Positions 5,428-56,040 of a stretch of 64,000 bases of DNA are shown piece after piece. The DNA lies in contig CAVWLP010000002.1 in the NCBI GenBank assembly GCA_963755915.1, forward strand, positions 2,496,001 through 2,560,000, written 5' to 3'. Both the position numbers and the translations under genes were made by a program. The notes below the pieces were generated by a model. It searched no databases. It was given only the letters and a program-made list of their open reading frames with translations, and was not told the origin of the DNA. This stretch comes from an uncultured Phycisphaerales bacterium. Its GTDB lineage: Bacteria > Planctomycetota > Phycisphaerae > Tepidisphaerales > Tepidisphaeraceae. Numbering within the stretch: the first letter of the stretch is position 1; every line of letters begins with the position of its first letter.

Positions 5428-5508
5428 CGCGAAACCCGCATTTTATTTTTATAGCTTGGGCGGGGAAGTAGATTGCCAAAAAACCGATCCGGTGCGGGCT
5501 CTCTTTGC

Positions 5509-5580
5509 TCTTCCTGGCGCCCTTGGCGTCTTGGCGGTTATAAAGATTTTTAACCGCCAAGACGCCAAGAGCGCCAAGAA
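5509..5580. repeat. REP-like palindrome family C (AACCGCCAAGACGCCAAG inverted pair)
   Basis: CTTGGCGTCTTGGCGGTTA...TAACCGCCAAGACGCCAAG; related copies at 27671/29167 and 52840-52868. Confidence 0.85.
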
Positions 5581-5809
5581 ATGCAAGAACGGAAATAACA
5601 GGAATTGCGCCCTGTGCGGGAGGCGCAGGACATCGCGGAGACAAGTTTATCCCCGTGCTACTGGCGGTTAGAAAAACTGATTAATTGCGTAATAAGAATT
5701 GATAACCACGGATTACACGGATTGCCCGGATGGGAAAGAGGCCCGATTCCCTGTCGGTGACATCCGCGTAATCCCCGGCGGAAAATTCATTTCCCAGAAG
5801 CGAAAATTA

Positions 5810-17595: not shown

Positions 17596-17840
17596 CTGAC
17601 GGCCGGACACTTTTCTTGGGTTCGGAGACTAAGCGGCCGGCTTTTTGAAGACAAAGGCAAATGCAAATGCAATGCGGTGGAGGCGGGAGACAACCCATAA
17701 GGCCCCAAGGTTTTTCTCCCGCCTCCCCCGCACCCCCTCCACCCTCTTTCCCTTCCCCTAAACGTCCAGCCCTGAAGGCAAAATGCGGAGGCGTTTCGCC
17801 AGTGATCTGCGCACCTGATCCACGTGTGCACCGAGCGACA
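17596..17840. mobile_element. Partial copy (one end) of the foldback MITE
   Basis: Starts CTGACGGCCGGACACTTTT and aligns to the reverse complement of 26517-26425 + 23494-~23360; distal end approximate. Confidence 0.8.
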
Positions 17841-19062: not shown

Positions 19063-19122
19063 GGCGATAGTTCCGCCCGACACTTATTAAATACCGCCGA
19101 AAATCCGCTCTTCCCGCCATTT

Positions 19123-19165
19123 TCCCCCTCCCTTGGTACTCCGGGGGAGGGTTGGGGTGGGGGTC
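19123..19165. repeat. REP-like palindrome family B (CCCTCCCCCGGAGTACC..GGGAGGGG)
   Basis: Related copies at 23114-23141/26518-26540, 50076-50151 and 55943-56000. Confidence 0.8.
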
Positions 19166-19441
19166 TTCGGAATTTTTCCCCGTCCGAAAAGGGATTGCCC
19201 TGGCGAGACGGAGAATCCAGCGATCGTGGACATGCTGGCGCGATTCGAAACTCAAAGGCGTTTCGGTTTTGCCGACTCCGACGAAGTCCGCGACAGACCG
19301 TGTCAAGATGCGTTCTTTGGTGGACTGACGAAACCCGGGCTCCTGAAAAGTTATTTAGCGTATTGTAATCTGAAATCCAGCGCTGATATTCAGGCTCGTA
19401 GCTGTAAGGGACGTTATTATCGCTTTTGATCCGTGTCGAGA

Positions 19442-23016: not shown

Positions 23017-23611
23017 GAGCATTTTGGAGCCGGGCATTTTAGAAGCGGGACGGGAGCGGGTTTGTCGGATTGGCTGTTGAACCAGGGCACGTGGCTTGAA
23101 AGAATGTCGAAGACCCCCACCCCGGCCCTCCCCCGGAGTACCTGACGGCCCGACACTTTTCTAACGCGCTGGCCAAGGGGCGCTCGTCTAAAGACGAAAT
23201 GCAAATGCAATGCGGGAGGGGCGAGGGGGAACCGATATAGGGCCCCAAAAGTTTCCCCCTCGCCCCTCCCGCACCCTCCCCACTCCCCTTCCTTTTCCCC
23301 TCAACGCTCCCCCTAAAATGCGTGCACGACAGCATCCATGCAATCGCGTGCCCCAACGCCATCGCGGACCAGGTGCGCGAACCATTAGCGAAACGCCTCC
23401 GCATTTTGTCTTTCGGCTTGGACGGTTAGGGGAAGCCGGAAAGTGGTGGTGGGGGTGCGGGGGAGGCGGCGAAAACCGCTTGGGGCCTTATGGGTGTCAT
23501 GGGGCGCGCAAAACCGGCCAATTGAGGGCGCACCAAAACCGGCCATTTTGAGGCACAGGAGATTGGGTTATCGACCTTGGCTTTCGGCGGTTGCCGCAAG
23601 CCAATGGTGGG

Positions 23612-25411
23612 ATGGCCAATCAACTCAAGATGGCGGAAGTACAAGCAATTTTGGCACTTGCGCAGCGGCTGGTCCAATCGGAACATCGCCCGCCAACTCG
23701 GCGTTCACCGGGAGACCGTTGGACGCCACATCCGGTTGTCGGGCGGCGATCCTGCGGCGCCCGGATCGGATTCAAAACCGGCCAGCGCCCCTCGGCTCGA
23801 CGGTGCTCGCCGCAGGCGGCTCGACGGTGCTCGCCGCAGGCGGCTCGACGGTGCTCGCCGCAGGCGGCTCGACGGTGCTCGCCGCAGGCGGCTCGACGGT
23901 GCTCGCCGCAGGCGGCTCGACGGTGCTCGCCGCAGGCGGCTCGACGGTGCTCGCCGCAGGCGGCTCGACGGTGCTCGCCGCAGGCGGCTCGGAGAGCGCG
24001 CCCACCGGGTTATCCGGCGCGCCCATCGGGTCGGTCAGTACGGCATCGCCCTGGCGTGAGGTCATTGTTCAGAAGTTGGAAGCCGGGCTGACGGCCCAGC
24101 GGATTTATCAAGACATCTCCAGCGATCACGGCTATGCCGGCAGCTATTACAGCGTGCGCCGGTTCATCAAGAAGCTCTCGGCTGCCGCGCCGGCGCCCTT
24201 TCGCCGGATGGAATGCGAGCCGGGAGCCGAGGCGCAGGTGGACTTCGGCCGGGGTGCGCCCTGGTCGGTCCTGACGGCAAACGCAAAGCAACCTGGGTCT
24301 TCCGCATTGTGCTGAGCCACAGCCGCAAGGGGTACGCCGAGGCGGTGGAGCGGCAGACGACCGATGATTTTCTGCGTTGTCTGGAAAATGCCTTTACGCA
24401 CTTCGGCGGGATGCCGTCAGCGCTGGTGATCGACAATCTTCGCGCGGCGGTGACGCGGGCGGACTGGTTCGAGGCGGAGTTGTGTCCCAAGGTCCGGTCG
24501 TTCGCCGAACATTATGGAATCGCCATTCTGCCCACCAAGCCGTACACGCCGCGGCACAAGGGGAAGATCGAGCGGGGCATCGGCTATGTGAAGAGCAATG
24601 CTCTCAAAGGCCGGCAATTCGCCTCGCTCTCGGATCAGAACGCGCATCTGCTGACGTGGGAGAAGAGCGTGGCCGACACGCGCATCCACGGCACGACGCG
24701 GCGGCAGGTGAAGGAAGTCTTCGAGCAGGTAGAGAAGCCGGCACTGTTGGCTCTGCCGCCGGTGCGATTCGATCTTTTCACCGAGGCGTTGCGCAGTGTT
24801 CACCGCGACGGGCACGTGGAGATCAAGGGGGCGTACTATTCGGTCCCGCCGGAGTTTTTGGGCCAGCGGGTCTGGGCGCGGTGGGACGGCGCACGGTCCG
24901 GCTGTTCGATCAGAAGATGCGTGCGATCGCTCTGCACGCGCAGCGTCCGCCGGGCAGGTTCTCGACGCAAGACGCCCATATCCTGCCGGAGAAGATCAGC
25001 GGCATCGAGCGTGGAACGACCTGGCTTCTCCAGCGGATCGAATGCATCGGGCCGCACGCCACGCAGTGGGCGCAGTCAATGCTTCAGCATCGCGGCATCG
25101 AAGGCGTGCGCGTGTTGATGGGGCTGCTGTCGCTGGCCAATCAGCAGCCGCGACCGGCCGTGGAACGAGCCTGCGAGATTGCTCTGGGGCATGGCGCGTA
25201 TCACCTGCGCTCCCTGCGGCAGCTCATCGAACACCAAAACGGCGCGCCGGTTCAACAACACTTCGAGTTTGTTCAGGAACATCCAATCATCCGCGGACTG
25301 GCCGATTACGGACAGTTCGTACGCGACGCAATCACCCAAGCGGAGGCTTTGCCTGCCGCACAACCTTTACAGGCCTGCCCTGAGCAGAGCCGAAGGGAGT
25401 CCACCCCATGA
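23612..25411 (+). CDS. istA: IS21 transposase IstA, frameshifted
   Basis: HTH WSNRNIARQLGVHRETV; EAQVDFG, VIDNLRAAV, KGKIERGIGYVK and RIHGTT motifs. Confidence 0.92.
23793..23991 (+). repeat. Tandem repeat, 8 x 24 bp (CGGCTCGACGGTGCTCGCCGCAGG)
   Basis: Eight identical units with no spacers; encodes (GSTVLAAG)8. Confidence 0.97.
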
Positions 25412-26298
25412 GACCTTCGTTGATGCAGACGCTCAAGCAACTTCGGCTTTCAGGTCTGGCGAGCAGCCTTGAAGTTCGCCTGAGCGAGGCGGCCGGCAAT
25501 CGGCTCGACCACAGTGAGTTTTTGGAACTGATCCTTCAGGATGAACTGAACGTCCGATCCAGCCGGCAGATCGGCCGGCGCGTCAAGGCGGCGATGTTCC
25601 GCGACACCAAAAACCTCGACGAGTTCGACTTCTCCTTCAACACCTCCATCAAACGCAAACAGATTCACGATCTGGCCGCCGGCCAGTTCATTCGTGACAA
25701 ACGTGACGTGCTCTTGCTGGGTCCGCCCGGCGTGGGCAAATCGTTTTTGGCCCAGGCCATCGGACACCAGGCGATCAAGAGCGGCTTGGTGGTCCTGTAC
25801 CGATCCATCTTCGACCTGGCCCGCGACTTTTTAGGCGACGAGGATCTGGGAGCCCAGGACAAGACGCTGGCCCGGTATCTCAAGCCTGATCTGCTTATCA
25901 TCGACGACATGGGAATGAAGCAGCTTCCGCGGCGCAGCGGCGAATGCCTGCTGGAGATCGTCATGCGCCGGCACGAGAACCGCTCGACGATGATGACCAG
26001 CAACCGTCCACTGGAGGACTGGGCCAAGCTGATCGGCGACGTGCCGGCGGCCACGGCCATTCTGGATCGGTTCCTGCAGCACGCCACGATCATCAACATC
26101 ACCGGCAAGAGCTACCGCCTTCGGCATGGGGGCCATTCGACTTCGCTCACGGCAGGCCAATCCGGGACACCGGAAAAGACAAATCCAAAAGGACGGCGGA
26201 GTACCGCCGGCGATGAAGGGTGCTCCCCCCCGGAAGACACCGTGACAGAGCCGCCGTTGTCTTCTGATGTGGGGGTATCCGCCGGCCAGACGGCGTGA
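25408..26298 (+). CDS. istB: IS21 helper AAA+ ATPase IstB
   Basis: GPPGVGKS, LLIIDDMG, TSNRP, AILDRF and GKSYRL motifs. Confidence 0.95.
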   Translation: MRPSLMQTLKQLRLSGLASSLEVRLSEAAGNRLDHSEFLELILQDELNVRSSRQIGRRVKAAMFRDTKNLDEFDFSFNTSIKRKQIHDLAAGQFIRDKRDVLLLGPPGVGKSFLAQAIGHQAIKSGLVVLYRSIFDLARDFLGDEDLGAQDKTLARYLKPDLLIIDDMGMKQLPRRSGECLLEIVMRRHENRSTMMTSNRPLEDWAKLIGDVPAATAILDRFLQHATIINITGKSYRLRHGGHSTSLTAGQSGTPEKTNPKGRRSTAGDEGCSPPEDTVTEPPLSSDVGVSAGQTA

Positions 26299-26619
26299 AC
26301 GGGGACCAATAACTCAAGGAACAGTTGCGTCGGATAGAACGGATGCGGTATAGAATACGTCAGCACATTGGCCGGTTTTGAAGCGCCCCGCCCTGGCTGG
26401 TTTTGGGCGCCCCGTGACAATGGGGTTGTCGCCGCCTCCCCTGCATTGCATTTGCATTTGTCTTTAATAGAGCTGGCCACTTGGTCTCCGAACTCGAACA
26501 AAGTGTCGGGCGGTCAGCCCGGAGTACCAGGGGAGGGGGAAAAGGGGGACATGCGATTGGCCTGGCCGTTGAACTCCTCTGAAACTTGAAAGCTGGCGGG
26601 AAACAGTTCTATTTAAGCC

Positions 26620-27672
26620 ATGCCAATTCTGCCGGCCCTTCGGAAACGGCGCCCGCCGAGGTGGAGGGATTATTATACGCTCCTGTTTCTTTTCCTGTGC
26701 GCCGTGCTCCTTGGGCCGTGGTTTACGTTTTATGGGCTTTATGCCGATCACCGGGACCGCCCCAGCCTGCAGTGGCCCAAAGTTTCCGGCATGCTCGTTC
26801 AGGAACGGAAACGGTATAGCGTGGGTCGTACCTCCGACGAGATGGTCAATGTCAGCTACACGTATGCCGTCAATGGTCATCATTATGTGGGCCACCACAT
26901 TCCGGCCTGGAGCACACAATGGGACGCCTACGAAGACGACCGATCCATGGCGTTTGCAAACGCGCATCCGGTCGGCTCGGTGGTGGCAGTCTATTACGAC
27001 CCGGAACAACCGGACAATGCCGCGCTGCTGCCCGGACCGGACGTGGCGGGCAACCGCTTCTTCATGATTGGCGGCTGCGCCATTTTGGTTTGCGGGCTGT
27101 TTCTGGTAACGATGAACTTCAACAAGCTCGCTGCGATGAAGTCAGCGATTCAGGCAAGGGAGGCGAGGCATCGGACGGTCGGCCCGCACAAACACGGCGC
27201 TTTGCGGCACGGTTTTGCCAGCTATGAGCCCGCGTGCAAACGAAAGCTGAATATTTTCCCGGACCAGCAATGCCTGGATGAAGTCCTCGGTCATCGGGGC
27301 AAGCCGCTGCAGGACTGGAAGGCGGAAGACCGGATGATTGATGTCGCGGGGTGTGAATACCGGATTGTCAAAGAGCCCGGCAAAAAAGCCTATGACCTCA
27401 GTCCGACAGGCGAGAAGTGGACGTATGAACAATTGCTCGGCGTTGCCGAGGAGGATGAACGGGCGGCGAAGAAAAAACCCGAGGCGCTGCGTCAATTGCT
27501 GGATGAAGTTGGGGAGAAGGACCGGATGGGGGTGCTGATGAAGGCATTGGACGCGAAATCGGAGATGCCGCAGTGGTTCGAGGCGGCGTTTGTGGCTTTT
27601 CTGGTATTGTTTGCCCTTGGTTGTGCCGCCGTCGGCGTTGCCATTTTTGAATTGGTGACGAAATATTTTTAA
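26620..27672 (+). CDS. DUF3592-like membrane protein
   Basis: TM-WPKVSG..VSYTYAVNG..VAVYYDPEQPDNAAL-TM pattern. Confidence 0.7.
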   Translation: MPILPALRKRRPPRWRDYYTLLFLFLCAVLLGPWFTFYGLYADHRDRPSLQWPKVSGMLVQERKRYSVGRTSDEMVNVSYTYAVNGHHYVGHHIPAWSTQWDAYEDDRSMAFANAHPVGSVVAVYYDPEQPDNAALLPGPDVAGNRFFMIGGCAILVCGLFLVTMNFNKLAAMKSAIQAREARHRTVGPHKHGALRHGFASYEPACKRKLNIFPDQQCLDEVLGHRGKPLQDWKAEDRMIDVAGCEYRIVKEPGKKAYDLSPTGEKWTYEQLLGVAEEDERAAKKKPEALRQLLDEVGEKDRMGVLMKALDAKSEMPQWFEAAFVAFLVLFALGCAAVGVAIFELVTKYF

Positions 27673-27792
27673 CCGCCAAGAAACTATGAAGCCGAGCCTT
27701 TCTCGGGACGTGAACGGGGTCAAAATGCCCCAAGTATGAACGAGCGTACCGCGTAGGTCGCTCAAACGTCTTTTTTGAGAAAGGACTCGGCA

Positions 27793-28836
27793 ATGCGAAT
27801 TCTCGCTTTGGACCTGGGAAAGAACAAGAGCGTTTTTGTGGATTATGTCACCGGCGGTGGAGAAAGAACGTTCGGCAAGATCGGCACCAATGCCCACGAG
27901 GTGCAAAAACTACTCGAGCGGGTGCGTCCGGATCGACTGGTCATCGAGGCCGGTCCGGCGGCAGGATGGGTTTGTGATCTGGCGGAGCGGAACAATGTTC
28001 CCGTCCAGGTGGCCAATGGCAACGATGAACGCTGGCGCTGGAAGACGGTGAAGGAGAAGAGTGATCGTAAAGACGCGCTGAAGATGGCGGCGATGTCGGA
28101 GATGGATTCGCTGCCGACGGTGCACGTGCCCAAGGCATCGGTTCGGCAGTGGCGTTCATTGATTGAATACAGACACGGCCTGGTGGATCGCCGCACGGCG
28201 CTCAAGAACTCGATCCGATCAATCTACGAGCGGCAGGGTTTGTATTTGCCCTCGGCGACCAAGGCGTGGACGAAAGCGCGACTGGAGGAAATGAGGAAGG
28301 AAGCAGCGGCCGCATCGGCGGAAGATCTGTGGCTGTTTCAGATCGGTTGTGAGGTGGCGCAACTGGAGCACCTGGAGAAGCAGATCGAAACTGTCGAAAG
28401 CAAGCTTCAGGAGTTGGGCCAGGCCAACAAAGCGGTGAAACGATTGCAGGAGGTGCCCGGCGTTGGTCCGCGGCTGAGCGAGGCGGTGGCGGTGATCATT
28501 GATGATCCCAGGCGATTCAAGAATGCACGTCAGGTGGGATGTTACGTGGGTCTGACGCCGCGGCGCTGGCAGAGCGGCGACAGCGATCGCCAGGGGCGGA
28601 TCAGCAAGGCAGGCAACGCGCTGCTGCGGGAGTTGCTGGTGGAGGTGGCGTGGCTGGGGGTTCATCGCAATACGTGGATGAAGGACGTGTACGAGAGGGT
28701 TCTACGTGACAGCGAGAAGCGCAAGAAGATCGCGATTGTTGCGGTAGCCAGGAGATTACTGGTGAAGCTGTGGGCGATGCTGCGGGACGGAACCCGATGG
28801 AGAGAACCCCAGCGATCGCTGACGGCGGCCACTTGA
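27793..28836 (+). CDS. IS110 family DEDD recombinase/transposase
   Basis: ALDLGK, IEAG, SDRKDA, VPGVG and GLTPRRWQSG..GRISKAGN motifs. Confidence 0.95.
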   Translation: MRILALDLGKNKSVFVDYVTGGGERTFGKIGTNAHEVQKLLERVRPDRLVIEAGPAAGWVCDLAERNNVPVQVANGNDERWRWKTVKEKSDRKDALKMAAMSEMDSLPTVHVPKASVRQWRSLIEYRHGLVDRRTALKNSIRSIYERQGLYLPSATKAWTKARLEEMRKEAAAASAEDLWLFQIGCEVAQLEHLEKQIETVESKLQELGQANKAVKRLQEVPGVGPRLSEAVAVIIDDPRRFKNARQVGCYVGLTPRRWQSGDSDRQGRISKAGNALLRELLVEVAWLGVHRNTWMKDVYERVLRDSEKRKKIAIVAVARRLLVKLWAMLRDGTRWREPQRSLTAAT

Positions 28837-28869
28837 AAATCGAAAAGGCGATGACTGTCCCGACAAGTC

Positions 28870-29145
28870 GGTACAGGCGATGGAGTATCTCCCCTCCGGA
28901 AGACACCGTGTCAGAAAGCCGTTGTCTTCTGTGCAGGGGATTGAGTAGAGTTGAAGTGAAGTGGAATTGACGCGTTCGTGCAGGTTGAATGAGCAAGGCC
29001 AGACCCCGGTTGGCGTCTTAAGCTTCAAAGCTTGCCGCTAAGAATAGGGCTGGCCATTTGTACAGTTGAATAGGCCCGCCGCCAGGCGAGAGCACTGAAT
29101 AGAAGGCTCACCCAATCGACCGCATGAGCGATCAACGCCCCTTGA
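28870..29145 (+). ncRNA. Putative bridge/seek RNA in the IS1111 3' non-coding end
   Basis: Internal loop 28997-29055 carries guides matching both sides of the insertion target; RNA ends approximate. Confidence 0.75.
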
Positions 29146-29315
29146 CAAGGCTCGGCTCATAGAAGACGCCAAGAGACTTCGATGAGCTCTCTTCGAGCCT
29201 GAGCCTCAGAGCCGAAGGCAGTCGAGCCGCGCCAAGAAATACAAATTGCTTATGGGTGAGGTTCCCCATTCGAATTTTTTCCCCCTGTGGCAGGCAATTT
29301 CAGGCGTCGGACAGA

Positions 29316-30095
29316 TCACCGCGATTCGGCGGGGAGAGTGTTGGTATGATCCAGGGCACCGAAGCGCCGATTGCGGGACGCAAACTCGGCGAGGGTCTTG
29401 TGGAATTCCTCGATATTGAAATCCGGCCAGAGGACGGGGCTCACGACAAGCTCGGCATAGCTGATCTGCCAGAGGAGGTAGTTGCTGACGCGCATTTCGC
29501 CCGCGGTGCGGATGAGCAAATCCGGATCGGGCATGCCGGCGGTGTAGAGATGGTCGCTGATGGTTTGCTCGCGGATGTCGCGCGGATCGATTTTCCGACC
29601 GCGGCTTTGGCGGCGATGGCACGGACGGCATCCGTGATCTCCGCGCGAGCCATAGTTGAGGGCGAGATTGAGTTGAAGGCCGTCATTATTGGCGGTTTCC
29701 GCCAAGGTCTGGTTCACCTGGTCGTTGACGAGATCGGGCAGATTCTCCAGACGGCCGATCTGCTTGAAGCGGATGTTGTTCTCCATCATCGTCGGCTGCT
29801 CCTGGCGGAGATAATCGACGTACATCTGCATGAGATAAGTGACTTCCGAGGCGGGGCGTTTCCAGTTTTCCAGGCTGAAGGAATAAAGCGTGAGGAAATC
29901 GGGAGCCCCATATTCCCGGCGGAGGCGGGAGCATTCGGTGACGAGGCCGCGGACGACCTTTGCCCCCTGTTGATGACCCTCGACGCGAGGCAGCCCGCGG
30001 GCGACGGCCCAGCGGCCGTTGCCGTCCATGATAATGGCAATGTGGCGCGGAATGCGCTGGAAGGGAAGATCGTCGAGCAGGGTCATTTGGGCCAT
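29316..30095 (-). CDS. uppS: Isoprenyl transferase (undecaprenyl diphosphate synthase), frameshifted
   Basis: HIAIIMDGNGRWA, FSLENWKRP, LNYGSR and DLLIRTAGEMRVSNYLLWQ motifs. Confidence 0.95.
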   Translation of the reverse strand: MAQMTLLDDLPFQRIPRHIAIIMDGNGRWAVARGLPRVEGHQQGAKVVRGLVTECSRLRREYGAPDFLTLYSFSLENWKRPASEVTYLMQMYVDYLRQEQPTMMENNIRFKQIGRLENLPDLVNDQVNQTLAETANNDGLQLNLALNYGSRGDHGCRPCHRRQSRGRKIDPRDIREQTISDHLYTAGMPDPDLLIRTAGEMRVSNYLLWQISYAELVVSPVLWPDFNIEEFHKTLAEFASRNRRFGALDHTNTLPAESR

Positions 30096-33468: not shown

Positions 33469-33487
33469 GGGAGGACAGATTCAGCGG

Positions 33488-33604
33488 GAAATCCGAATTC
33501 CGAAACCAGAATTCCGAATCAAATCCGAATGACGAAATCCGAATGGGCTGTCGTTGATTCGGATTTCAGATTTGAGATTTCAAATTTCAGATTTCTGATT
33601 TCAA
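33488..33604. repeat. Heptamer-periodic repeat (AATCCGA / ATTTCAG)
   Basis: Similar tract at 38268-38390. Confidence 0.7.
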
Positions 33605-38181: not shown

Positions 38182-38289
38182 GAGTATGCTCCGAAACGAG
38201 GGGTGGAAGTTAATGGGATTTGATTAGGGATGCAAATGGACTGGTTTGGATCGAGATTTGGGTCGGGAAATCCGAAATCCGAAACCAGA

Positions 38290-38766
38290 ATGACGAATCA
38301 AATCCGAAACCAGAATGACGAACGGTCGAGGCATTCGGGTTTCGGTCATTCGGGTTTGATTCTGGTTTCTGGTTTCGGGCTTCTGGTTTTGTTCGCGGAT
38401 GCCCGCGCTCAGTCCGTTTCCCCGACCCCATTCTATTACGCCAGCGGTACGCCGTATGATGCGCAGGATAAGACGCTGATCGTGGGGGCGAATCAGAGTT
38501 TGGGGCAGGCGGTGGTTTCTGGGGATCGGAAGCGTGTGACGCTGGATTTGGATACGGGGCTGCTGGGGTCGGCGGGGGTGGCGGGGTTTACTTATCAGCG
38601 AGGGGGGAGGGGGTTTGTGGGGAGCGCGGCCGCGGCGCCGGCGGCTTCACCGGGCGCGGGGAACGGGTTGATGCCTACGATAAAGACGTCGCCTTCGGAT
38701 ATTGAGCCGGATCTTTCGGTCCTCGATAAGCCAGGGATGGTTTTGATTGCTCCTTTGGGAAGATAA
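38290..38766 (+). CDS. Secreted hypothetical protein (start uncertain)
   Basis: Hydrophobic stretch and ADARAQ cleavage-like site; stop 2 bp before the AsmA-like gene. Confidence 0.55.
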   Translation: MTNQIRNQNDERSRHSGFGHSGLILVSGFGLLVLFADARAQSVSPTPFYYASGTPYDAQDKTLIVGANQSLGQAVVSGDRKRVTLDLDTGLLGSAGVAGFTYQRGGRGFVGSAAAAPAASPGAGNGLMPTIKTSPSDIEPDLSVLDKPGMVLIAPLGR

Positions 38767-43681: not shown

Positions 43682-43874
43682 CGATCCACTTTGCTGTTTG
43701 TTAGGCCAATGCTGGGCCGCCAAGGGCAATTAAAAGTGACGGGCAATCAAAAGTAATGCAAGCCATTATATCGATTTCTGCTTTTTTTCCGGCCGTTTTC
43801 TGCATCCTCCGGGGCGGCGGCGCGGACCCATCGTATTCTCGAGGCGCAACGCCTTACCTTTATTTCATGCAATG

Positions 43875-44947: not shown

Positions 44948-45308
44948 GATTTTTGCGCAGCGCGTGGGACAATTAAATGTGACGCAAACCATTATATCGA
45001 TTTCTCCCGTTTTTCCGGCCGTTTTCTCCATCCTTCGCGGCGGCCGCAATCCGGCGACTGCTTCACCATTTTCTCCTCGGCCTCGGCCGTCGGCAAGTTG
45101 ATGATCTGGAGCCAGCGCGGCGGCGTCACCTTCTATTCTCTCGACAAGGGGTCAGTTTCGTCCCTATGGCCCAACACACGTTACATCCCGCGGTTATTGA
45201 GAATTAAACAAACCCCGCGCAATCGCCGCCGCCACACCAGTTTAAATCAAAATAAGTTATCGTTTGCTAACTAATTCGCGAAAAACGTAACAAAACGTAA
45301 CATTCTGT

Positions 45309-50038: not shown

Positions 50039-51491
50039 CCAGGGCGATCCAGATTGTGGCGGAACCGATCGGAGGCCCTCACCCCTGCTCCCGACAGGTC
50101 GGGACTTCGCTTCGCTCAGCCTCCAATCCCCCGGAGTACCGGGAGAGGGGGTAAGAAAGGCGCGGGGGGCGTTTGCGGGGTGGTCGTCGAAATCAGTTGA
50201 GGAGCGCGGCGAGTTTTTGAGAAGGCTGGAGAGTCAGTACTGGGCGAATAAGGAGGAGATTGCCCGGGGGATTTCGCAGGAGACGGGCAAGCCGTATTGG
50301 GAATCGCGCCAGGAAGTGGATGCGATGGCGAATAAGATTCCGATTTCAATCGAGGCGTATCAGGATCGGTGCCGGGAGGTGAAGAAGGCGCTGCCGGATG
50401 CGACGGGGTTTACGCGATTTCGTCCGCATGGGGTTTTGGCGGTGCTGGGGCCGTTTAATATGCCGGGGCATTTGCCGAATGGGCATATCGTTCCGGCGGT
50501 GCTGGCGGGGAATACGGTGGTGCTGAAGCCGAGCGAATTGACGCCGAAATCGGGGGAGATTTTTGTGCGGTGTTTTGCGGCGGCGGGGTTTCCGGAAGGC
50601 GTGTTCAATCTGGTGCAGGGGGGGAAGGATGTGGGGGCGGAATTGGCGGGGCATGCGGATGTGAATGGGGTTTTGTTTACGGGGAGCACGGGAGGGGGGA
50701 TTGCGCTGCGGCGGGCGTGCGCGGATCAGCCGGGGAAAATATTGGCGCTGGAGATGGGGGGAAATAATCCGCTGATTGTGCATCAAGCGGGAGACCTGGC
50801 GGCGGCGGTTTATCTGATTATTCAGTCGGCGTATGTGACGGCGGGGCAGAGGTGTAGCTGTGCGCGGCGATTGATTCTGGTTCGGGGAGAGGAATCGGAT
50901 GCGTTAGTGCAGCGGCTGGTTTCGGCGATTGAAAAGATTCGCGTGGGGATGCCGGGGGATGAGCCGGAAGCGTTTATGGGGCCAGTGATTTCGACGGAGG
51001 CGGCGCGGACGATTCTGCTGCATCAGGTGCATCTGGTCAGCCTCGGGGGCAAGGCGCTGGTGGCGACGAAGCGCTTGCCGCGGCATCCGGGTTTGCTGAC
51101 GCCGGGATTGATCGATGTGACGGAGGTGGAGAATTGGCCGGATATTGAAGTCTTCGGCCCGCTTTTGCAGTTGATTTTCGTTGAGAATTTCGAGGCGGCT
51201 ATCGAGGAGGCGAATCGCACGAGCTACGGGCTTTCCTGCGCGTTGATTTCGGAGAATGCGGGGTTGTACGAGCAGTTTCTGCGGGGGATTCGCGGGGGGG
51301 TGATTGCTTGGAATCGGCCGATGACGGGGGCGAGCAGCCATTTGCCGTTTGGGGGGATTGGGAATTCGGGGAATCATCGGCCGGGCGGATATTTTGCGGC
51401 GGATTATGCGGCGTATCCGGTGGCGGCGCTGGAATCGGCGACGGCGCGGATTCCGGAGAAGCTTCCACCGGGGCTGGAAATTTCGCGGTGA
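50022..51491 (+). CDS. astD: Succinylglutamate-semialdehyde dehydrogenase
   Basis: PGHLPNGHIVPA, LALEMGGNNP, AGQRCSCARR, GNHRP and ADYAAYPVA motifs. Confidence 0.92.
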   Translation: MTRTNDQGDPDCGGTDRRPSPLLPTGRDFASLSLQSPGVPGEGVRKARGAFAGWSSKSVEERGEFLRRLESQYWANKEEIARGISQETGKPYWESRQEVDAMANKIPISIEAYQDRCREVKKALPDATGFTRFRPHGVLAVLGPFNMPGHLPNGHIVPAVLAGNTVVLKPSELTPKSGEIFVRCFAAAGFPEGVFNLVQGGKDVGAELAGHADVNGVLFTGSTGGGIALRRACADQPGKILALEMGGNNPLIVHQAGDLAAAVYLIIQSAYVTAGQRCSCARRLILVRGEESDALVQRLVSAIEKIRVGMPGDEPEAFMGPVISTEAARTILLHQVHLVSLGGKALVATKRLPRHPGLLTPGLIDVTEVENWPDIEVFGPLLQLIFVENFEAAIEEANRTSYGLSCALISENAGLYEQFLRGIRGGVIAWNRPMTGASSHLPFGGIGNSGNHRPGGYFAADYAAYPVAALESATARIPEKLPPGLEISR

Positions 51492-55724: not shown

Positions 55725-56040
55725 GGGGGGATGGGTGATGGAGGATTTTTGTTTTGATCGATGAGTATAGTTCAGCGCGGCGGGAGCTGCGTGTCAAGGA
55801 GGGGGAGGGTGAGAAAGGTGTGAAAGGGGAGTGACGGGGAAACGAAAGGAATCGACGGGGAAGGGGAAGACCGGGGGGTGGAAAATTGGGATGGTTTGGG
55901 GGAATTGGAGTTGGTTTTTTGGCTTGGGTAAACTGCGCGCGAACCCCCTCCCCCAACCCTCCCCCGGAGGACTGCGTCCCGCTTACCGGGGGCGGGGGGA
56001 ATGGGCGAGGGGAGGACGCGTTGAACGTAGTGAGGCGACA

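Follow-up and report, generated by a model that had tools for sequence, protein, structure and literature searches.

Two insertion sequences (ISs) of unrelated families, one belonging to IS21 and the other to IS110, share a hairpin-forming segment of about 65 nt near their 3′ ends within a 64,000-nt stretch of DNA from an uncultured Phycisphaerales bacterium (here called the window; positions 2496001-2560000 of contig C2 in genome G000, a three-contig assembly of 6.6 Mb, 81% complete and with 8% contamination). We propose, with a probability of about 0.5, that this segment is the core of a two-hairpin RNA module which recurs in IS21, IS110 and IS3 lineages of Tepidisphaeraceae, derives from a small RNA (sRNA) of the host and acts in the 3′ untranslated region (UTR) of transposase transcripts; for the function taken alone, our confidence is lower than that figure. 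The source of the module appears to be the 3′ half of a conserved, single-copy host sRNA gene.

An earlier reading of the letters alone (the sequence-only reading) had reported the segment at 26209-26275 in the IS21 element and at 28876-28939 in the IS110-family element, and both copies match its report letter for letter. The stems it described, CCCC/GGGG and GGAAGACA/TGTCTTCT, are both present in the minimum-energy folds, and its assignment of the carriers to IS21 and IS110/IS1111 is upheld by Pfam domains. The core 13-mer GGAAGACACCGTG occurs twice in the window, as compared to 0.04 occurrences expected by chance, and none of 100 shuffles contained two or more matches to it. When the two whole elements were compared by blastn, the motif was the sole similarity (84.5% over 58 nt, E 3.7e-10). 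The sequence-only reading had named an assembly chimera as one way in which its claim could fail. Short-read contigs span both motifs without a difference: DNA contigs from run X1 cover 25611-26406 and 28687-29200, those from run X5 cover 25400-26386 and 28839-29115, and each set shows 0 differences over the motifs. Since these runs come from two studies (X1 possibly being the sample behind the window assembly), the motif sequence is not an assembly artefact.

Genome-wide, blastn together with a covariance model (R1), with 150 of 1156 first-look candidates scored, indicated 52 sense copies of the motif, which provides the table of carrier families that the sequence-only reading had called for. 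The window's IS21 element (IS21-A) accounts for 31 identical copies, a second IS21 about 71% identical to it (IS21-C) for nine, a third, single IS21 (IS21-E) for one, and the IS110-family element (IS110-B) for another nine, so that 50 of the 52 lie within complete or relic IS21 and IS110 elements. The remaining two are solo copies, designated F and D. The sequence following F resembles the right end of an IS3 element in a relative, and F is therefore regarded as an IS3-end relic; D is a host gene. Self-comparison of the genome found the motif in none of 42 regions of an IS4/5-like family and none of 13 regions of a group II intron, and it was likewise absent from the IS481 (0/5) and IS630 (0/4 and 0/3) families of the same genome. 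With copies confined to certain ISs and the host gene, and other mobile elements devoid of them, the motif is neither a general IS feature nor a genome-wide repeat, the latter being another outcome that the sequence-only reading had held to be fatal to its claim.

Copy D has the anatomy of a candidate stand-alone trans-acting sRNA with a constant single-stranded tract and is the only D-type gene in the window's genome. It is preceded by TTGATT and, 17 nt further on, a TATAAG-like hexamer, in line with -35/-10-like hexamers at 17-nt spacing that were read by eye in several genera, and its hairpin is followed by TTTTT. In order, D-type genes comprise promoter-like hexamers, a segment close to AGAUAGGUAAA, a short hairpin (GCGCC-UAC-GGCGC), AUUUU, CUCCCCUCC and an intrinsic terminator of the form GGAAGACACCG-variable top-CGGUGUCUUC-UUUUUU, i.e., a GC-rich hairpin directly followed by a U-run. 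The gene, a candidate core sRNA of Phycisphaerae, has an invariant tract, AUUUUCUCCCCUCC. In 42 loci the D-type gene sits behind a gene with a TPP_enzyme_C domain. R1 matched in 31 of 36 other Tepidisphaeraceae genomes, and among the loci read, most genomes had the D-type gene; the group belongs to Tepidisphaeraceae/Tepidisphaerales (Planctomycetota, Phycisphaerae) and includes Fontivita pretiosa, in which the gene is present (locus L078). A second model built on the host gene (R2) found a match in 73 of 151 genomes sampled across the class; some families were matched in every genome searched (8/8, 14/14, 6/6), others in not a single one (0/19, 0/16).

Covariation, which the sequence-only reading had proposed to check in the motif, is seen in the host gene. 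Across 68 distinct host-gene sequences, 11 lower stem pairs are invariant and the upper pairs covary (GC 48, CG 17, GU 2 and AU 1 at one pair; CG 57 and GC 7 at another). Three further families of the class share this CU tract but have a lower stem altered with compensation (GGAAAACAUC..., GGAAAGCACC...). A 23-sequence class alignment has 98% of its cells paired, as compared to 48-69% in slid controls, and includes six pairs changed on both sides; its covariation score was 0.202 versus 0.080 in shuffles, a value that 0 of 500 shuffles reached. One row of the alignments (L012) stems from an unpublished genome (G014), and the claims made here are independent of it. Rfam 15 returned no family match at E up to 1 in seven loci, six of which contain the host gene. 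To our knowledge, the small RNAs of Planctomycetota are almost unexplored.

Compared with the host gene, the IS-borne module keeps some parts and replaces others. It consists of hairpin 1, a purine-rich linker, CUCCCCYCC, hairpin 2 (GGAAGACA/UGUCUUCU) and a G-run, and thereby retains the CUCCCCYCC tract and the GGAAGACACCG strand of the host gene; the opposite 3′ strand usually carries one mismatch, CGU or CAU for the host CGG. The AUUUU linker of the host is replaced by 10-14 purine-rich nt (GAUGAAGGGUG, GAUGGAGUAU, GUGUGAGG and others) and its U-run by a G-run that pairs back to the CU tract. Hairpin 1 is not fixed in sequence, most variants having a hairpin of differing sequence at a constant distance upstream. 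The stem is the Tepidisphaeraceae version, GGAAGACACCG, as opposed to the GGAAAACAUC or GGAAAGCACC of other families, while the sRNA gene itself is class-wide, and so capture from a Tepidisphaeraceae host would be the simplest reading. The derived features common to the IS families suggest one capture that was followed by spread between elements.

Within the elements the module occupies a constant place. Always in sense, it directly follows the final transposase gene or overlaps its last codons, at a distance of ~140-230 nt from the right end; the window's IS21 copy ends 144 nt ahead of the right end, and the IS110-B copy starts 40 nt past the stop codon and ends 227 nt ahead of the right end. 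Three IS21 lineages share 68-78% identity overall, and the motif is better conserved between them than any other non-coding part. The sequence-only reading had assigned the IS21 motif to a tail beyond the conserved end of IstB, which needs correction: the Pfam match ends at residue 240, but in this copy the motif is inside the open istB frame, whose stop lies at 26298. This frame runs through the motif in IS21-A, ends 17 nt short of the CGGAAGAC core in two other IS21 lineages, and crosses the motif in a different frame in one further lineage, arguing that conservation acts on nucleotides rather than on protein. A conserved peptide through the motif was ruled out, since neither the IS21 lineages nor the elements agree in the frame in which it is read.

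The same module is found beyond this genome. Collections were scanned with exact words, namely a 20-mer in reference genomes and a 21-mer chosen to exclude the host type in metagenomes. The 20-mer occurred in at least 88 reference-genome stretches, which, among the matches listed, are labelled Tepidisphaer* or other Planctomycetota with the exception of one Candidatus Brachytrichaceae; the 89 instances listed divide into 66 of host type and 23 of IS type. Carriers, assigned in contexts other than L033, L053, L073, L098 and L111, comprise several IS21 lineages, three IS110 lineages that are mutually only 30-45% identical, and two IS3 lineages. One of the latter is present in five copies in a single metagenome-assembled genome (MAG), where the stop of its rve/HTH_21 frame is placed 44 nt into the 20-mer, with the right end about 176 nt past the core; the second shares 45% amino-acid identity. 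Overall, transposases of the module-bearing IS3 and further IS110 lineages are only 30-50% identical. An IS110-like right end was considered for loci L011, L114 and L115 and rejected, because all three have an IS3-like terminus and L114 an IS3 transposase upstream.

From the metagenomes, 80 of at least 120 stretches were fetched, yielding 81 instances; this sample underlies all metagenome counts given here, which hold among the matches listed. In 50 of the 81 instances a transposase homolog lies directly upstream (17 IS3, 17 IS110, 16 IS21), in the same orientation in all 50 and opposite in none; in three, a transposase homolog is found only downstream. Of the 70 distinct metagenome variants, only four show TTTT behind the hairpin, and in 53 of the 70 at least four of the nine CU-tract bases are paired with a downstream partner in the minimum-energy fold. 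The region upstream of the motif folds somewhat better than shuffles (mean z -1.14, with 17 of 70 below -2). One MAG holds at least five copies of a ~165-nt repeat that has an IS110-like right end and, in most copies, no transposase beside it; no copies of this solo type were found in the window's genome. In a separate, small dispersed metagenome repeat, a hairpin, CCGCUGGCAUCCUGCCAGCGG, abuts an identical CU tract and stem, once as an inverted pair (loci L150-L152, L160, L169, L182, L184, L185, L202, L203, L205, L207, L212, L217 and L220). Viral contigs gave 0 matches to the 20-mer.

The place of the module and its strict sense orientation suggest that it plays a part in the transposase transcript. 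We infer that the module would be transcribed as the 3′ UTR of the transposase mRNA, where, as a 3′-end structure imitating the host sRNA, it may shield or set the mRNA 3′ end, bind a host factor recognizing the CU tract and stem of the sRNA, or do both; the G-run, gained where the U-run was lost, would mask the CU tract. The retained CU tract and lower stem are the constant part of the host gene, which suggests that the same partner, be it protein or RNA, recognizes sRNA and module. As the U-run is missing, simple intrinsic termination is disfavoured; indeed, the G-run in its place and the scarcity of TTTT among the variants led us to discard the IS-type motif as a Rho-independent terminator. 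Contigs from two RNA-library runs, spanning 28796-29000 (0 differences) and 25516-26406 (61 differences, from a relative), are a weak hint of transcription; contigs of the RNA runs extend over small shares of the stretch, where ends, strand and level are not readable and uncovered parts carry no meaning. IS3, IS21 and IS110 elements form circular or tandem intermediates with junction promoters (summarized in PMC12288879), and it is a speculation of ours that the junction in such intermediates could be insulated by RNA structure on the 3′ side, close to the right end of the element.

Several results weigh against a functional RNA module. Fold stability is ordinary (z -0.34 and -1.95 for the two window copies), and the covariation seen in the host gene has no counterpart in the IS-type alignment, whose score of 0.075 versus 0.076 in shuffles was reached by 286 of 500; this alignment is model-fitted and includes four weak reverse-strand rows. 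The RNA-library signal rests on contigs, and DNA can be present in such libraries. Invariance of the 20- or 21-mer among scan matches is a matter of construction, as the scans used an exact word. The motif is absent from one IS3 family (0/8 copies) and two further IS110 families (0/6 and 0/4) of the window's genome, and together with the module-free IS4/5-like, IS481, IS630 and group II intron families this means that the module is dispensable for ISs. Lastly, 28 of the 81 metagenome instances had no match to the transposase queries (one is an IS110 by Pfam), and some of these lie in the small dispersed repeat, behind ordinary genes (PDZ, NUDIX, response regulator).

Part of this evidence would fit a neutral hitch-hiker, that is, a piece of host sRNA captured once and spread among co-resident ISs by recombination or a carrier resembling a miniature inverted-repeat transposable element (MITE), with no service to the elements. 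The derived features common across families (G-run, purine-rich linker, CGU/CAU for CGG) agree with one origin and subsequent spread, small motif-bearing repeats exist without a transposase, IS3 and IS110 relatives in the same genome manage without the module, and the IS-type alignment lacks a covariation signal. Against a passenger, the module persists where transposases are only 30-50% identical and non-coding flanks fail to align, its place and sense direction are constant in all 50 informative metagenome instances, and no other non-coding part is as well conserved across three diverged IS21 lineages; we regard this explanation as unlikely. It is quite unlikely, in our view, that the module instead acts in trans, as a mimic or decoy by which IS transcripts with a masked CU tract and G-rich, target-like segments compete for the targets or a protein partner of the host sRNA. 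An IS tract identical to the one held constant across the class, a linker and tail complementary to it, and 50 IS-borne copies in one genome speak for such competition, which, if real, would link IS load to a host regulon. Against it, folding predicts cis pairing of the CU tract for 53 of the 70 variants, and the sole extended pairing with a transposase 5′ region (IS110-B, -20.7 kcal/mol, the best obtained with the two elements tried) was reached by 2.25% of 400 random windows; CU-tract pairing with transposase 5′ regions was therefore dropped as not significant.

Action at the DNA level, with the 20-mer bound by a host DNA-binding or recombination protein, could account for a constant 5′ strand facing a mismatch-tolerant 3′ strand in the IS copies. 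Yet duplex binding leaves the strict sense orientation behind the upstream gene unexplained, the homologous locus of the host forms a terminator hairpin whose pairs covary, and one variant (L126) retains linker and CU tract but differs in hairpin 2, making this reading improbable. The chances are slimmer still that the motif is a part of an IS110 bridge RNA captured by IS21, as the sequence-only reading had offered among its options, or a generic terminator or repetitive extragenic palindromic (REP) repeat. In IS110-B the motif does lie between the transposase stop codon and the guide-bearing region, but it contains neither a target nor a donor complement, is carried by IS21 and IS3 as well, and is absent from two IS110 elements of the same genome despite 250-520 nt of 3′ non-coding sequence; moreover, TTGGCGTCTT begins 71 nt downstream of it, which would place the bridge-RNA guides beyond the motif and not in it. 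A terminator is at odds with an IS form devoid of a U-run, and a REP repeat with 50 of 52 copies residing in IS21/IS110, one in an IS3-end relic and one in a host gene. Another option of the sequence-only reading, a structured RNA module or host-factor site common to ISs, fits the sense copies behind IS21, IS110 and also IS3 transposase genes, although that reading had missed the host sRNA gene as their apparent source. Its premise that unrelated ISs should not share non-coding DNA finds an answer in that origin: the sharing is real, and a common host gene would explain it.

Table 1 Features of the two carrier elements and of the host gene (window positions unless a contig is named)
Feature	Position	Strand	Basis or remark
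IS21-family element A	23495-26419	+	56-nt terminal inverted repeats 23495-23550 / 26364-26419; similarity between copies ends directly after ...GTGACA; 31 genome copies
istB	25408-26298	+	Pfam match up to residue 240; open frame continues across motif
IS21 hairpin 1 (GGCGG-AGUA-CCGCC)	26195-26208	+	sequence, minimum-energy fold
IS21 purine-rich linker GGCGAUGAAGGGUG	26209-26222	+	sequence
IS21 CU-rich tract CUCCCCCCC	26223-26231	+	counterpart of host sRNA single-stranded tract
IS21 hairpin 2	26232-26265	+	GGAAGACA (26232-26239) paired with UGUCUUCU (26258-26265)
IS21 G-run	26271-26275	+	pairs back to CU tract; occupies place of host gene U-run
IS110-family element B, IS1111-like layout	27682-29166	+	boundaries from 9 genome copies; Pfam
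IS110-family transposase gene	27793-28836	+	open frame, Pfam
IS110 hairpin 1	28855-28876	+	fold
IS110 linker, CU tract (28889-28897), hairpin 2 (28898-28905 with 28923-28930) and G-run (28936-28939)	28876-28939	+	sequence, fold
TTGGCGTCTT	29010-29019	+	reverse complement of target junction AAGA/CGCCAA
Host gene copy D	C3:786225-786288 (gene region to 786292; locus L003, about 1430-1556)	sense model match	outside window, AT-rich spacer

Both carriers have the hallmarks of their families (Table 1). In the IS21 element, genes for IstA (DDE/rve) and IstB (AAA+) lie between terminal inverted repeats, with Pfam matches to rve and Mu-transpos_C_2 in 24213-25118 and to IstB_IS21 in 25408-26298 (E 4.9e-66). 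The position of its hairpin 1 is filled by a hairpin of other sequence in most variants. The istA gene of the window copy (23577-25411) is split over three reading frames, and copies show single-base differences in G-runs; either true frameshifts or homopolymer errors in the assembly could be behind this. The istA region also contains a perfect 24-nt tandem repeat of 8.3 copies (23793-23991); 28 such arrays of 3 to 12 units each exist genome-wide, and this varying unit number marks it as a variable-number repeat within the transposase gene. Inverted repeats of a C-run/G-run family (e.g., CCCTCCCCCGGAGTACC...GGGGAGGGGG), present in the window at 17653-17743, 19117-19177, 23100-23223, 23445-23495, 26432-26546, 50127-50154 and 55945-55972, flank the IS21 copy, and one of them seems to have been its insertion site; CGGAGTACC is common to these repeats and the loop region of the IS21 module's hairpin 1.

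The IS110-family element encodes DEDD_Tnp_IS110 and Transposase_20 domains (Pfam, 27775-28836) and inserts site-specifically. Its target in eight of nine copies is a REP-like palindrome (...GGCGTCTTGGCGGTTA...TAACCGCCAAGACGCC...), the window copy sitting in a partial one and an intact palindrome lying within the window at 5505-5586; as judged from the complementarity to the target junction, TTGGCGTCTT is likely the target guide of the element's 3′ bridge RNA. Rfam 15 produced no match to the motif within 23300-29400, and its two sub-threshold matches elsewhere in that stretch, Actino-ugpB (E 0.44) and sR28 (E 0.15), were treated as chance, being far below gathering scores and away from the motif. 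A K-turn or C/D-box-like interpretation of UGA/CUGA pieces, assessed by eye only, was dropped as their placement is unlike the k-turn requirement. Elsewhere, the window holds an 81-nt direct repeat (84% identical; 43741-43821 and 44967-45047) and CCGAAT-rich repeat blocks (33485-33546 and 38264-38389), and the genome at large is rich in mobile elements, with ~42 IS4/5-like and 13 group II intron regions (e.g., C3:343847-345434 and C2:1297429-1299473).

IS21, IS110 and IS3 elements move by quite different chemistry. A common module at the same place in all three points to a shared transposon-host interface at the RNA level, and offers a small, concrete sequence relevant to the control of transposase expression. 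The host gene adds a candidate core sRNA of Phycisphaerae with a constant CU-rich tract and no Rfam family. Tentatively, and with considerable doubt, one may go further and suppose that three unrelated IS families each acquired, in masked form, the functional core of a class-wide regulatory sRNA. If so, IS transcripts would plug into the host sRNA machinery and compete for its protein partner or targets, and transposon expression would be coupled to a host regulon, or IS mRNAs shielded as "self". The location of the IS110-B module right before the bridge-RNA region may, in addition, bear on how the bridge RNA is made. Literature searches, in which supplements were not covered, brought up no account of this sRNA or of an IS module shared across families.

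Among known systems, sRNAs derived from mRNA 3′ UTRs can carry the seed of a core sRNA, as exemplified by DapZ with its GcvB-like seed in Salmonella. The module is similar in that a seed-like tract beside a 3′ hairpin at an mRNA end matches a conserved stand-alone sRNA. However, DapZ-type sRNAs use the intrinsic terminator of the mRNA and expose the seed, whereas the module lacks a U-run, its tract is predicted to be paired, and its carriers are transposons. REP repeats and bacterial interspersed mosaic elements (BIMEs) are short hairpins at the 3′ ends of transcription units, and a small dispersed repeat with the identical 20-mer does exist in metagenome contigs (among the matches listed); the window's genome, in contrast, does not have the motif dispersed between genes, 50 of its 52 copies being in IS21/IS110.

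IS1111-type elements have a non-coding RNA region (bridge RNA or seekRNA) downstream of the recombinase gene (summarized in PMC12288879). Reminiscent of such a locus, the IS110-B motif stands directly upstream of a 10-nt target-complementary stretch; unlike a bridge RNA, it has no guide loops, is found with DDE transposases (IS21, IS3) and is absent from two IS110-family elements of the same genome. The nearest known case is ISPpu9 of Pseudomonas putida KT2440 with its Ssr9 module (MITEPpu9), an sRNA module that is located downstream of an IS110-family transposase gene and dispensable for transposition (PMC12288879). Both ISPpu9 and IS110-B are REP-inserting IS110-family elements with an RNA module behind the transposase gene. 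Further copies of the Ssr9 module stand alone, whereas the window's genome has no stand-alone copy beyond the host gene and the IS3-end relic. Ssr9, in that account, is confined to one IS, flanked by boxes resembling the IS ends and complementary to an antisense RNA of that same element, and it lacks a parent gene on the chromosome; the present module, by contrast, is common to three unrelated IS families and appears to derive from a chromosomal sRNA gene.

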